From the IMG/VR virus record IMGVR_UViG_2648501186_000005: 5,671 nt of DNA. One strand, given 5' to 3'. Within the stretch, counting starts at the first letter, position 1, and each line of letters starts with the position of its first letter. This document shows, piece after piece, positions 2,083 to 5,118 of the stretch. The DNA comes from a virus (Duplodnaviria; Heunggongvirae; Uroviricota; Caudoviricetes). The notes under the pieces were generated by a model. The model was not told where the DNA came from and did not search any database. It saw only the letters and a list, made by a program, of their open reading frames with translations. The translations under genes and the position numbers were made by a program.

Positions 2083-2418
2083 CTATGCTGGGATGACGGA
2101 AATGGAGTGCCGAATAGCTGCACTTCCGCCTCCTAAATCAATTGTAATATTCCAGTAACCTGAATGCGGTACATGAAGGTGGGCCGGTAATCTCTGAAAA
2201 AAACCGCCACCACCGTGATGATGAAAGCTTCTTGCGTTGCGGTAGTTATTAAAGTTTGTATCTGTCATCAGCAAAATATTGCACTGATGAGAGCAGTCAA
2301 CCACTACCGTATCTCCTGCATTTAAATGCATTCTTTTATGTAAAAACTGCATGTGATTTCCCTGATCAGAGGTAATCAGCCATCCCTCTTTCTCTATGAT
2401 GAGCCAGCGTCCCACCAC
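2083..2418 (-). CDS. Hypothetical His/Gly-rich protein, up to 111 aa from GTG at 2418 (or about 90 aa from the internal ATG near 2355); reverse-oriented cargo gene
   Basis: It is the only ORF of 60 aa or more in the roughly 780-bp interval between the 1748-1770 terminator and the holin gene. It runs opposite to every phage gene in the window. The translation contains SFHHHGGGGFFQRLPAHLHVPH and DLGGGS. The GTG start has no obvious Shine-Dalgarno sequence and the internal ATG has a weak GGGA upstream. Rare codons (AGA, GGA, ATA, TTA) are common. Whether it is coding is uncertain. Confidence 0.4.
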   Translation of the reverse strand: MVGRWLIIEKEGWLITSDQGNHMQFLHKRMHLNAGDTVVVDCSHQCNILLMTDTNFNNYRNARSFHHHGGGGFFQRLPAHLHVPHSGYWNITIDLGGGSAAIRHSISVIPA

Positions 2419-2551: not shown

Positions 2552-2941
2552 ATGTCTGAACCCTTATCCGGTTCCAGCACTGCTGTGGCGCTCGGCGGGG
2601 CGACGGTATTCGGGCTGTTTACCGGGACGGATTTCGGGATTGTGTTTGGCGCGTTTGCCGGGGCGTTGTTTGTGGCCACGATGCCACAGGTGATTTCTGT
2701 CTGGCGTGTGGCGGCGCATTTTCTGGTGTCGTTCATTGTTGGCGTGCTGGGGGCGGATGTCCTTGCGTCCTGGCTGGTCGAAAAATTGAATCTCCACAGC
2801 ACATCTCTCGACGCGCTTTGTGCGGTACTGGTATCGGTGGTGTCGGTGAAGATTCTCTCATTCATCCACCAGCAGGATATCGCATCGCTGGTATCCGGGC
2901 TGTTCTCCCGTCTGCGGGGTGGAGGCGGTAATGTTAAGTAA
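2552..2941 (+). CDS. Putative holin / lysis membrane protein, 129 aa, 3-4 predicted Gly-rich TM helices
   Basis: ATG at 2552 with AGGAG (2540-2544) at 7-nt spacing; the ORF-track start at 2501 lacks an SD. Hydrophobic segments are AVALGGATVFGLFTG, GIVFGAFAGALFVATM, AAHFLVSFIVGVLGADVLASWLV and LCAVLVSVVSVKILSFI, with a polar, charged C-terminal tail. It sits immediately upstream of the endolysin, and its stop overlaps the next gene's start (ATGTTAAGTAA). Confidence 0.65.
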   Translation: MSEPLSGSSTAVALGGATVFGLFTGTDFGIVFGAFAGALFVATMPQVISVWRVAAHFLVSFIVGVLGADVLASWLVEKLNLHSTSLDALCAVLVSVVSVKILSFIHQQDIASLVSGLFSRLRGGGGNVK

Positions 2942-3209
2942 CCTTCCCGGATTACTGAATGTGGTGTTAAGCACGGTTATCGTGCTGACGCTCTTTTTTT
3001 ATCGTCGTGGTGAGTCGAGACATAAACCGCTGATGTCGTGGCTGGCCTGGCTGCTGATGCTGCTTTATGCCTTTGCGCCGCTTTGTTATCTGTGTGGTCG
3101 CTTTCCACCCGGTAACTGGCTGGTCGTCCTGATTAACCTGGTGTTCTGCGTGCTGGTGATACGAGCACGCGGGAACGTATCAAAAATCCTTGTATTACGA
3201 AGGCGCTGA
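2931..3209 (+). CDS. Second lysis-cassette membrane protein, 92 aa, about 3 TM helices with an Arg/Lys-rich C-terminus (holin- or antiholin-like)
   Basis: ATG at 2931 with GGAGG (2921-2925) at 5-nt spacing, overlapping the stop of the upstream gene. TM segments are LLNVVLSTVIVLTLFF, LMSWLAWLLMLLYAFAPLCYLCG and WLVVLINLVFCVLVI, and the C-terminus is RARGNVSKILVLRRR. The TGA at 3207-3209 lies 1 nt before the endolysin ATG (TGATATG), indicating translational coupling. Confidence 0.6.
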   Translation: MLSNLPGLLNVVLSTVIVLTLFFYRRGESRHKPLMSWLAWLLMLLYAFAPLCYLCGRFPPGNWLVVLINLVFCVLVIRARGNVSKILVLRRR

Positions 3210-3210
3210 T

Positions 3211-3756
3211 ATGAAGTCGAAAGATGAAATTTTTGACGAAATTCTGGGAAAAGAGGGCGGTTACGTCAATCACCCGGATGATAAAGGTGGTCCGACTAAA
3301 TGGGGCATCACTGAAAAAGTTGCCCGTGCACACGGTTATCAGGGCGATATGCGTGACCTGACGCGTGGGCAGGCGCTGGAAATACTCGAGGCGGACTACT
3401 GGTACGGACCACGATTCGACCAGGTTGAGGACCTGTCTCCGGATATTGCCGCAGAGTTGTGCGATACGGGCGTGAACATGGGGCCAACTGTGGCGTCCAG
3501 AATGCTTCAGCGCTGGCTGAACGTTTTCAACCTGCGCGGGAAACTCTATCCGGATATGGATGCTGATGGACGCATCGGGCCGCGTACTCTTAATGCATTA
3601 CGGGCATATCTGAAAAATCGCAGCAGGGATGGTGAACTGGTACTGGTGAAAGCCCTGAACTGTACGCAGGGCGAGCGTTATCTGGAGCTGGCAGAGAAAC
3701 GCGAGGCCAATGAGTCGTTTGTCTATGGCTGGATGAAAGAGCGCGTGGTGGTTTAA
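3211..3756 (+). CDS. Endolysin: glycoside hydrolase family 108-type muramidase with a C-terminal peptidoglycan-binding domain (181 aa)
   Basis: ATG at 3211 with GAAGG at 7-nt spacing; the TTG at 3190 in the ORF track is not the start. The N-terminus has ILGKEGGYVNHPDDKGGPTKWGIT; the EGGY motif with the catalytic Glu is what I recall for GH108 lysozymes. The C-terminal half resembles the PG-binding region that accompanies GH108 domains. There is no signal peptide or SAR segment, so it would depend on a holin. Confidence 0.85.
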   Translation: MKSKDEIFDEILGKEGGYVNHPDDKGGPTKWGITEKVARAHGYQGDMRDLTRGQALEILEADYWYGPRFDQVEDLSPDIAAELCDTGVNMGPTVASRMLQRWLNVFNLRGKLYPDMDADGRIGPRTLNALRAYLKNRSRDGELVLVKALNCTQGERYLELAEKREANESFVYGWMKERVVV

Positions 3757-3850
3757 AAACTGACACTGAAGTGCTGAACACCCTCAACTCATGCAGGCTC
3801 TTTTCTGGGGCTACGATGAGCGAAAGTAAGGGGCATAGCATCAGATAGCA

Positions 3851-3890
3851 AAAACCCCGGCTGCGGTAACAGTCCGGGGTTTTCTGTTTC
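3851..3890 (+). terminator. Rho-independent terminator after the endolysin gene (usable in both directions)
   Basis: AAAACCCCGG (3851-3860) / CCGGGGTTTT (3874-3883) around a 13-nt loop, followed by TTTTCTGTTTC; A-tract upstream and T-tract downstream. Confidence 0.75.
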
Positions 3891-3916
3891 TGGCCTTGGG
3901 TAAGGCAAAGGAGAAC

Positions 3917-4099
3917 ATGAGGAAGTATAAACTAATTCTGTTGAGGTTGACTATGAAAAACGGCCTTGAATTGAAAGCGCCTGTAACTGATGACATCAGC
4001 AGAGCGGTGGCTTTTGCCATTAAGTGGGTGGCGGTCGGTATCGCTGTGTCTCCGATGCTGTATGGGATGGCAAAATTGCTCATTGCTGTGAAATCGTAA
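3917..4099 (+). CDS. Small membrane protein, 60 aa, C-terminal TM anchor
   Basis: ATG at 3917 preceded by AAGGAG (3908-3913); an alternative ATG at 3953 has GAGG upstream. The translation is MRKYKLILLRLTMKNGLELKAPVTDDISRAVAFAIKWVAVGIAVSPMLYGMAKLLIAVKS, with a hydrophobic C-terminal stretch. It is the first of three tightly spaced small genes after the terminator. Confidence 0.5.
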   Translation: MRKYKLILLRLTMKNGLELKAPVTDDISRAVAFAIKWVAVGIAVSPMLYGMAKLLIAVKS

Positions 4100-4116
4100 G
4101 TGGGGCAGGGGTAAAT

Positions 4117-4251
4117 ATGTCAGATAGCATTATAAAACTGGCGCGAATTCTCTGTGTGGTTGTTGGCCTTTCATTTTCAGCAATGTTGGTTGCCATTTTC
4201 ATTTCCACCGCCTGGCGAGTATTGAGCTTATCCGGATTGATTGGTGGATAG
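4117..4251 (+). CDS. Tiny single-pass membrane protein, 44 aa
   Basis: ATG at 4117 with AGGGG at 5-nt spacing, 17 nt after the previous stop. The translation is MSDSIIKLARILCVVVGLSFSAMLVAIFISTAWRVLSLSGLIGG, with one central TM helix. Its stop lies 4 nt before the next start. Confidence 0.45.
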   Translation: MSDSIIKLARILCVVVGLSFSAMLVAIFISTAWRVLSLSGLIGG

Positions 4252-4255
4252 TGAG

Positions 4256-4438
4256 ATGAAGCGAAAACACTGGACACACAGAATGCCGCGAACGGCGGCG
4301 AAATGGGCACTGGTAGCGATACTGGTGCCTTTTTTCCTGGTGGGATGCGTCAGCCTGGATAAGGCGCGCCAGCTTTTCGATACAGCTTCTCAGGTCTGTG
4401 AAATTGTCGACGGTGTTCGGCAGTGTATGCAGAACTGA
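4256..4438 (+). CDS. Small predicted lipoprotein, 60 aa precursor with a lipobox (LVGC) and a mature part of about 29 aa containing two further Cys
   Basis: ATG at 4256; an alternative ATG at 4286 would give a more typical signal peptide, MPRTAAKWALVAILVPFFLVGC. The L-V-G-C lipobox is followed by VSLDKARQLFDTASQVCEIVDGVRQCMQN. It is too short and not proline-rich enough for a typical Rz1-type o-spanin. Confidence 0.5.
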   Translation: MKRKHWTHRMPRTAAKWALVAILVPFFLVGCVSLDKARQLFDTASQVCEIVDGVRQCMQN

Positions 4439-4525: not shown

Positions 4526-4735
4526 ATGTTAACTGTAAAAGTCATGTCTCAAAATGGTGGGGAAGAGATCCATTGCGGGCGTAGCATTGGCTATCATCCT
4601 GAGCAGCGGAGTATTGCCGTATCGGGAAAGGATGGGAAAGTCATTCTGAAAGATGGAGATATTGCTTATGTAATGAACCAAAACGCTCAAATAATATCTG
4701 TTTATCGGCCCAATAATAGTCAGAAAAACATTTGA
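4526..4735 (+). CDS. Hypothetical small protein, 69 aa, soluble, probably beta-rich
   Basis: ATG at 4526 with AGGAG (4514-4518) at 7-nt spacing. The translation is MLTVKVMSQNGGEEIHCGRSIGYHPEQRSIAVSGKDGKVILKDGDIAYVMNQNAQIISVYRPN.... No TM segment. I cannot assign a family from memory. Confidence 0.55.
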   Translation: MLTVKVMSQNGGEEIHCGRSIGYHPEQRSIAVSGKDGKVILKDGDIAYVMNQNAQIISVYRPNNSQKNI

Positions 4736-4858: not shown

Positions 4859-5074
4859 ATGGTTTTTAAACACTATTACGTGAACAAAAATGCTCAGAGC
4901 AATGGCGATCATGAGGTGCATGCTGAGGAATGTTCATATCTTCCTGCTGTAGCTAACCGCGATTACCTTGGTTACTATAGTGATTGTTCTTCGGCGGTAA
5001 CAGAGGCAAAGGCCAAAGGATATTCCCGGGTGAATGGTTGCTATTGGTGTGCCAATAAGTGCCACACGTCTTAA
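4859..5074 (+). CDS. Hypothetical small Cys/His-containing protein, 71 aa, possible metal-binding; last gene before cos
   Basis: ATG at 4859 with GGAG (4848-4851) at 7-nt spacing and a terminator about 20 nt downstream. The translation contains HEVHAEEC ... DCSS ... GCYWCANKCH. Its position matches the small ORFs found at the extreme right end of lambda-like genomes, but homology is unverified. Confidence 0.55.
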   Translation: MVFKHYYVNKNAQSNGDHEVHAEECSYLPAVANRDYLGYYSDCSSAVTEAKAKGYSRVNGCYWCANKCHTS

Positions 5075-5091
5075 TCAATTGTCAATAAACC

Positions 5092-5118
5092 ATAAAGGCC
5101 GCTCTGCGGCCTTTTTCA
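5092..5118 (+). terminator. Rho-independent terminator (usable in both directions)
   Basis: GC-rich stem GGCCGC (5097-5102) / GCGGCC (5106-5111) with a short loop, flanked by ATAAA upstream and TTTTT (5112-5116) downstream. Confidence 0.7.

Follow-up and report, generated by a model that had tools for sequence, protein, structure and literature searches.

Which product takes the last step of lysis in a prophage with no recognisable spanin pair? The question is raised by a stretch of 5,671 nucleotides (nt) of Caudoviricetes DNA (IMG/VR record IMGVR_UViG_2648501186_000005), which we call the window. It is the late region of a lambdoid Escherichia coli prophage, 100% identical to that of strain N18-04097 and of a dozen other genomes. 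Directly after the endolysin gene, where a pair of the Rz/Rz1 type would normally lie, there are a terminator and three small genes, here called A, B and C. An earlier note, made from the letters alone, had described the three as one module and had proposed for it a non-canonical outer-membrane disruption system, a lysis-timing or antiholin-type regulator set, or a prophage-expressed moron. We find two units instead of one module. For gene C, the reading that we favour, at a probability of about 0.58, is that of a stand-alone spanin substitute, an outer-membrane disruptor resembling an o-spanin (the outer-membrane subunit of a spanin pair, the i-spanin being the inner-membrane one). The lysis cassette and its surroundings comprise (aa, amino acids; TM, transmembrane):

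2552-2941, + strand: holin 1, first gene of the lysis cassette (Pfam Phage_holin_8, E 1e-22; phrog_198, holin; annotated as putative holin)
2931-3209, + strand: holin 2, overlapping holin 1 by 11 nt (Pfam Phage_holin_3_7, E 8e-21; phrog_217, holin)
3211-3756, + strand: endolysin, with a GH108 catalytic domain and a PG_binding_3 domain (Pfam E 1e-26 and 9e-27)
3847-3888, + strand: intrinsic terminator hairpin with U-tract, left end of the mobile A-B insert
3917-4099, + strand: gene A, 60 aa, basic N-terminus and C-terminal TM segment, phrog_1115
4117-4251, + strand: gene B, 44 aa, single TM segment, phrog_4906, accompanies A
4256-4438, + strand: gene C, predicted 60-aa prolipoprotein, phrog_7528, conserved final gene of the lysis cassette
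4305-4336, + strand: terminator-like hairpin with T-tract inside gene C, in the codons of the signal-peptide h-region

The elements described in the earlier note are real. The coordinates and features of the three open reading frames (ORFs) were all verified (A of 60 aa and C-terminally anchored, B of 44 aa with a single TM segment, C a lipoprotein of about 60 aa), as were the gaps of 17 nt between A and B and of 4 nt between B and C. The strong terminator after the endolysin gene has a hairpin that folds at -22.3 kcal/mol (z = -3.5), with a U-tract behind it: UUUUCUGUUU. That note had also named a lack of translation or conservation as evidence that would speak against its proposal. All three genes are coding and under purifying selection: among homologous copies, the ratio of non-synonymous to synonymous differences (pN/pS) in the annotated frames is 0.40 for A, 0.25 for B and 0.25 for C, and 0.6-2.0 in the other two frames, and 86 of 86 copies of C are intact. 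RefSeq annotates exactly these three coding sequences (CDSs) in the identical prophage, as hypothetical proteins. Each matches its own PHROG family (E 1e-19 to 1e-40). These families have no assigned function, scans of A, B and C against Pfam, NCBIfam and PADLOC gave no match, and all database names of gene A are "hypothetical".

Gene C in the place of Rz/Rz1

To follow C across genomes, we gathered 85 loci via this gene from IMG/VR, GTDB genomes and GenBank phages. In all of them C comes after holin 1, holin 2 and a GH108 or M15 endolysin gene, and the genes that follow it vary. Many relatives carry an M15 peptidase in place of the GH108 endolysin and retain these holins and C. Without an insertion, C begins 14-15 nt past the stop codon of the M15 endolysin gene (25 loci) or overlaps that of the GH108 gene (2 loci); larger gaps occur only where A, A and B, or another gene sits between. 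An exhaustive profile search of 1.84 billion representatives retrieved 25 members of the C family, purely enterobacterial, and this hidden Markov model search gave no link to any known family. The distant members lie 0-10 nt after an M15 or GH108 endolysin gene, in cassettes with a single Phage_holin_3_1 holin, and the Lelliottia member likewise follows the endolysin gene. The packaging and morphogenesis modules beside C are unrelated to each other (lambda Nu1/cos, phiP27 HNH/terminase, Terminase_2, Dit-like). C is the fourth and last gene of the phiP27-type lysis cassette, made of holin(s), endolysin and C, across two holin and two endolysin types.

A reverse survey starting from holin 2 gave 69 evaluable cassettes with holins 1 and 2. 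C was present in 59 of them, Rz/Rz1 occupied the same spot in 5, none had both, and 5 had neither. By our own arithmetic, which ignores the relatedness between loci, the hypergeometric probability of this lack of overlap is about 2e-5. In one of these cassettes (locus L158) Rz starts around 15 nt past the M15 stop codon, and in distant cassettes with the two holins (mEp390, Yersinia vB_YpM_39) an ordinary overlapped i-/o-spanin pair stands at the spot of C. The Stx2 prophage of O104:H4 strain 2009EL-2050 has C-like DNA (locus L102, 3001-3190) downstream of intact S-R-Rz/Rz1 genes, which has acquired a frameshift and two stop codons; upstream of this remnant there is also a heptose-phosphate phosphatase gene on the reverse strand. 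The genes are arranged in the same way in phage GER2, where the C-like stretch is only 70% identical and carries no annotation. Because C is exclusive with Rz/Rz1 and decays beside intact Rz/Rz1, it is a positional alternative to the spanin genes, kept where these are absent and decayed where they are present.

Prophages encoding LT-II enterotoxins (SerU-LTIIb, locus L088; Rac-SA53, L089; also L177 and L179) carry the toxin genes directly after holin 1, holin 2 and the GH108 endolysin gene, in place of A, B and C, and have neither C nor Rz. In these elements toxin release and lysis may proceed without an outer-membrane step, or the prophages may be defective.

The sequence signals fit expression as a late gene. 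No + strand promoter-like site was found, and two terminator-like hairpins (3847-3888 and 4305-4336) precede the codons of the mature C peptide, so C would be expressed only late, by transcription running past both. The missing promoter, the two hairpins and the junction of C with the endolysin gene in the basic arrangement disfavour a prophage-expressed moron, which we ruled out as the leading reading. Nor did Pfam, NCBIfam or PADLOC match the C family to the moron lipoproteins Bor, Cor, Llp or entericidin. A related possibility is that C is a late accessory lipoprotein with no part in envelope disruption, acting in receptor masking or superinfection exclusion, as T5 Llp and Cor do, or in lysis timing. 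Llp and Cor are small outer-membrane lipoproteins with disulfides and such accessory roles, the region from the lysis genes to cos is a known moron site that houses Bor in locus L153, and some cassettes lack both C and spanins. We nevertheless judge this distinctly unlikely: it predicts neither the exclusivity with Rz/Rz1 nor the decay beside these genes, C is tightly joined to the endolysin gene without a promoter of its own, and its association with unrelated packaging and morphogenesis modules makes a single receptor target unlikely.

The second hairpin is encoded within C itself. The codons of the h-region (4305-4330) form an 11-base-pair hairpin followed by T5-6, whose pairing is kept in 97-100% of 76 unique sequences, with one-sided changes only. 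Its minimum free energy is -18.4 kcal/mol, whereas 1000 synonymous recodings of this peptide give -8.3 +/- 2.7. The hairpin is also present in distant family members whose peptides differ, and synonymous divergence is 0.12 at the hairpin versus about 0.20 elsewhere in C. The hairpin may serve in termination or attenuation or may mark an mRNA end, and it may explain part of the striking conservation of the signal peptide.

The search for an inner-membrane partner

An o-spanin works with an i-spanin, and the earlier note had suggested searching the rest of the prophage for a canonical Rz/Rz1 pair. There is none: from int to tfa, no spanin is annotated in the window's prophage, tblastn with lambda-type and mEp390-type spanins gave chance matches only, and C is the only credible lipobox ORF.

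A partner of C has, however, been proposed in phage phiP27, for which Kongari et al. 2018 (PMC6139136) list a separated two-component spanin; at 62 residues, its periplasmic length is the shortest of all those listed. Their o-spanin (phiP27 20706-20861) is a 51-aa form of the C gene family, 95% identical, and a C-family lipoprotein has thus already been called an o-spanin computationally (PMC6139136). Their i-spanin (phiP27 20348-20542; PMC6139136) is a 64-aa ORF that starts with TTG. This ORF (locus L003, 3733-3927, + strand) lies antisense to a 90-aa reverse-strand gene of family phrog_36812 (3717-3989). In two other loci the reverse-strand gene persists, with 45% identity, and no trace of the forward ORF is left; the region is absent from most loci with C. 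We therefore rejected the 64-aa ORF as a non-conserved antisense frame of the phrog_36812 gene. In the same locus, the true C homologue occupies 4058-4246, and the GenBank CDS L32 (4015-4170), which runs over its start, was called in the wrong frame.

We also scanned 146 distinct neighbourhoods of C de novo. Near C there was no ORF that combines an N-terminal TM segment with a hydrophilic tail, and no second credible lipoprotein ORF except Rz/Rz1 beside the decayed O104:H4 remnant. A and B were likewise rejected as i-spanins of C, by distribution, since both are optional, and by topology, since neither has a periplasmic domain. Given the spurious phiP27 partner, the empty scan and the unsuitability of A and B, C is an orphan without an inner-membrane partner gene. 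The outer-membrane disruption that the earlier note had considered for the whole trio thus gains support for C only, from its Rz/Rz1 position, the mutual exclusion and the lack of an i-spanin partner.

C could still be the o-spanin half of a true two-component spanin whose hidden partner is a host protein, a holin or the uncleaved C precursor. This would agree with the class given to the phiP27 copy by Kongari et al. (PMC6139136) and with several traits that C shares with o-spanins: a place in the lysis cassette, directly after the endolysin gene in the basic arrangement; a lipoprotein signal whose lipobox predicts lipidation and sorting to the outer membrane; and periplasmic cysteines that could form intermolecular disulfides, at mature positions 18 and 27. 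In addition, the C subfamily follows the type of holin and not that of endolysin, and the signal peptide, including its long basic n-region, shows unusual conservation of the protein sequence, although the RNA hairpin can explain part of it. Yet neither the 146 neighbourhoods nor the whole prophage hold a cognate i-spanin gene, be it embedded, overlapping or adjacent; the only published candidate is the TTG-started antisense ORF, lost where the phrog_36812 gene diverges and located in a region found in few loci; and a mature C of 30 residues is too short to bridge the periplasm or to provide the combined periplasmic length of a spanin pair. The same pair of holins coexists with ordinary i-/o-spanins in mEp390 and with Rz/Rz1 in L158, so the holins do not replace the i-spanin. 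We consider a hidden partner unlikely.

The C peptide and known lysis proteins

C is predicted to be a prolipoprotein with a long basic n-region (residues 1-17), an h-region (18-27) and the lipobox LVGC (28-31; cysteine codon at 4346-4348). The predicted mature peptide has 30 aa including the lipid-bearing cysteine, is amphipathic and free of proline, and has two further, invariant cysteines. The start codon is the first ATG, which gives 60 aa, since many homologues have T, I, V or A instead of Met10. The n-region, of about 17 residues with 5-9 Lys/Arg, has a pN/pS of 0.28 with normal synonymous divergence, which points to conservation of the protein, and the values are 0.21-0.28 in each of the three segments of C. 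Among 121 members of the family, 108 have cysteines at mature positions 1, 18 and 27, 113 lack proline, and 118 have V or A at position +2, which is never Asp. The 18-mer hydrophobic moment of the mature peptide is 0.53-0.62. Structure prediction, another check suggested by the earlier note, was run with AlphaFold2 for C and gave one continuous helix. For the phiP27 peptide of the C type, the table of Kongari et al. (PMC6139136) gives 83% helix. A PDB search with a sequence profile from the C alignment gave chance matches only, and no Pfam family matched C even at E <= 1, including Lysis_col (PF02402) and Entericidin. Literature searches by protein accession, PHROG identifier, orphan o-spanins, and LT-II and Stx2k phages retrieved nothing on these genes.

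We compared C with the known means of breaching the outer membrane. Like lambda Rz/Rz1, it lies at the end of the lysis cassette, where the two are interchangeable after holin 1, holin 2 and M15, and like Rz1 it encodes a small, predicted outer-membrane lipoprotein with periplasmic cysteines. It differs by having no Rz-like partner, by not being embedded in another gene, and by a similarity confined to the lipobox, the only region that hhalign aligned between the C family and lambda-type Rz1 or the mEp390-type o-spanin (probability <2%). C is predicted to be helical and has no proline, whereas Rz1 is proline-rich and unstructured (Kongari et al. 2018, PMC6139136). With the unimolecular spanin (u-spanin) T1 gp11 it shares a single gene, an N-terminal lipoprotein signal and the absence of a second subunit. 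The u-spanin has a C-terminal TM anchor and a long periplasmic domain, whereas C ends after 30 residues in a polar tail (...VRQCMQN) without a second hydrophobic segment.

The phiKT gp28 disruptin (bioRxiv 10.1101/515445) resembles C in being a small, amphipathic and helical peptide; it is the proposed outer-membrane disruptor of a phage that lacks spanins. C differs by its predicted lipid anchor and a net charge near zero. The disruptin is reportedly a cationic peptide of the antimicrobial type without a lipoprotein signal, and C is neither cationic nor devoid of a signal sequence. A similar format is that of colicin lysis proteins, or bacteriocin release proteins (BRPs), with precursors of around 45-60 aa, a lipobox, a mature lipopeptide of about 30 aa and a gene that comes last in an induced operon, behind a terminator. 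BRPs lack the extra cysteines, are rich in Gly, Ser, Thr and Gln and not helical, and are plasmid-borne with the colicin gene. In pCloDF13, the signal peptides of BRPs are said to be conserved and to have a function of their own. Further traits of this class are a stable signal peptide and lysis that depends on PldA, the phospholipase A of the outer membrane.

If C is a spanin substitute, Sec would export it, and after lipidation Lol would deliver it to the inner leaflet of the outer membrane, where it would build up late in infection in the form of helical oligomers linked by disulfides. After the removal of the murein by holin and endolysin, C alone would destabilise the outer membrane, the step that spanins, or the disruptin in phiKT, take in other phages. 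Phage phiP27 is presumably inducible and infectious, in which case its cassette would be enough for release. It might do so by perturbing the membrane directly, by fusion with the bulging inner membrane, by activating a host factor as colicin lysis lipoproteins do, or by pairing of its precursor with the mature form. In this last and more exotic form, a slowly processed precursor in the inner membrane and the mature protein in the outer membrane would pair via their helices and cysteines, which would explain the conserved signal peptide and basic N-terminal tail.

Several points weigh against this reading. A peptide of 30 residues cannot span the periplasm, and no evident mechanism would hold C back while the murein is still intact. 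The mature peptide is not cationic (net charge -1 to +1 in 106 of the 121 members) and only moderately amphipathic, and the predicted helix is of low confidence (predicted local distance difference test score, 68). The five cassettes with neither C nor Rz (two with LT-II toxin genes, two with a Bor-type region, one with a truncated C) imply either that C is dispensable or that those prophages are defective. The loci belong to related enterobacterial prophages, so that the counts are not independent events and overstate independence. The side tail fibre gene of the window's prophage (locus L092, 12722-14284, outside the window) is annotated as incomplete, and this copy may thus not be a fully functional phage. 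Finally, the roles put forward for C, A and B are drawn from position, co-occurrence and sequence features.

Three solutions, the spanin pair, the u-spanin and the disruptin, are known for the final lysis step of phages of Gram-negative bacteria, and around 13-15% of these phages have no recognised one (PMC6139136; bioRxiv 10.1101/515445). The C family is a candidate for a fourth. In its strongest version, C would be a new kind of disruptor, a stand-alone disulfide-bonded helical lipoprotein of 30 residues that replaces Rz/Rz1 without an inner-membrane subunit; this remains tentative, at somewhat less than an even chance. If it is true, a breach of the outer membrane from inside by such a short lipopeptide would be relevant to outer-membrane-active agents and to the release of toxins from Stx and LT prophages, and, should complementation work, C could become a new class of outer-membrane disruptor. 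What is new here is the spurious nature of the phiP27 partner, which corrects the published spanin assignment (PMC6139136) and leaves its o-spanin an orphan, together with the conserved family exclusive with Rz/Rz1 and the split of the trio into two units.

The A-B insert and the prophage around it

This split follows from the distribution of A and B and from the limits of the homology. Homologous lysis cassettes do not always carry the trio, a point that the earlier note had proposed to check: among the 85 loci, there is nothing between the endolysin gene and C in about 35, A alone in about 20, A and B in about 25, and an unrelated reverse-strand gene in 4 (the phiP27 type). A and B also occur together without C, between the signal-arrest-release (SAR) lysozyme gene R and Rz/Rz1, in phages PhiR12_x and PhiR5_2 and in O157:H7 prophages. 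Gene B is present with Rz/Rz1 in PhiR12_3, PhiR5_2, O157:H7 and loci L144 and L147, whereas A-like genes alone adjoin Rz in O104:H4 and C in phiSTEC1575-Stx2k. When the window is aligned with PhiR12_3 and PhiR5_2, the homology runs from the terminator hairpin to the stop codon of B and ends at the start codon of the next gene, C or Rz; in PhiR12_3 the same hairpin precedes A-B with a different inner stem. DNA of A/B was found in 1780 of 5426 complete E. coli genomes (about a third), at up to 9 copies per genome, and C in 354 (6.5%), with Stx2e and Stx2k phages among its carriers. The terminator, A and B are inserted between the endolysin gene and the following outer-membrane gene, Rz/Rz1 or C, in thousands of E. 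coli prophages. The trio is therefore not one module: the terminator, A and B form one unit, a separate and very common mobile insert independent of C, and C is another.

These data also bear on the idea that A, B and C form one three-protein membrane module, with A or B as the inner-membrane partner of C. The tight packing of the three genes in the window and the presence of A, or of A and B, directly upstream of C in about half of the loci would fit it. It is very improbable, since C occurs without A and B in about 35 of the 85 loci, A and B accompany Rz/Rz1 without C in far more genomes, and the insert ends exactly at the start codon of C or Rz. Judging from sequence, the tail anchor of A leaves almost nothing of it in the periplasm, and only around 12 residues of B lie there.

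Of A and B we can only say that they are real small membrane proteins, presumably late-expressed, and encoded just upstream of an outer-membrane gene in two unrelated types of cassette. They would be inner-membrane proteins made only from Q-antiterminated late transcripts and, as a guess, accessory modulators of lysis. The lysis-timing or antiholin-type role suggested by the earlier note is possible for them. They have one TM segment each and lie inside lysis cassettes, and they gave no Pfam, NCBIfam or annotated PHROG match. In phage P2, the small membrane-protein gene lysA reportedly lies between the endolysin and spanin genes, is non-essential and affects the timing of lysis; the likeness of A and B, each with its one TM segment, to LysA and to antiholins is an analogy of position only. 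A third of E. coli genomes carry this uncharacterised gene pair within lysis cassettes. Further small genes are common between holin, lysozyme and Rz genes in E. coli lambdoid cassettes, such as those of the O157:H7 and AR_0104 prophages (loci L100 and L101), which have a YdfR-family gene, A-like variants of 38-60 aa and ORFs of 28-43 aa. The A-like genes are often only 1 nt from Rz or C.

The host element is a lambdoid E. coli prophage with Rac-type immunity and lambda-type cos, and the trio lies inside its late lysis operon. By annotation, the identical prophage encodes Rac-type immunity (racR, ydaS/T), a Q antiterminator and a head and tail resembling those of lambda. We take the end of the window (about 5516-5671) to correspond to the left end of lambda, with a lambda-type cos and the start of the Nu1 region; the small and large terminase subunits are annotated just downstream in a relative. 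The remaining features of the window are:

up to 927: DNA methyltransferase gene
1446-1724: 92-aa ORF, phrog_2873
2083-2418, reverse strand: DUF1883 gene
4526-4735: small conserved ORF between C and cos, phrog_3909
4859-5074: small conserved ORF between C and cos, Cys-rich, phrog_4298

The last two ORFs are followed by a perfect bidirectional terminator hairpin (5094-5114) and occur with C in only some loci. Scans of the window for tRNA genes and Rfam families gave no match. The region between the methyltransferase gene and holin 1 (928-2500) is a hotspot of moron insertion. In relatives, the same site holds tRNA genes and stx2e in phiP27, and tRNA genes with a duplicated holin gene in SerU-LTIIb.

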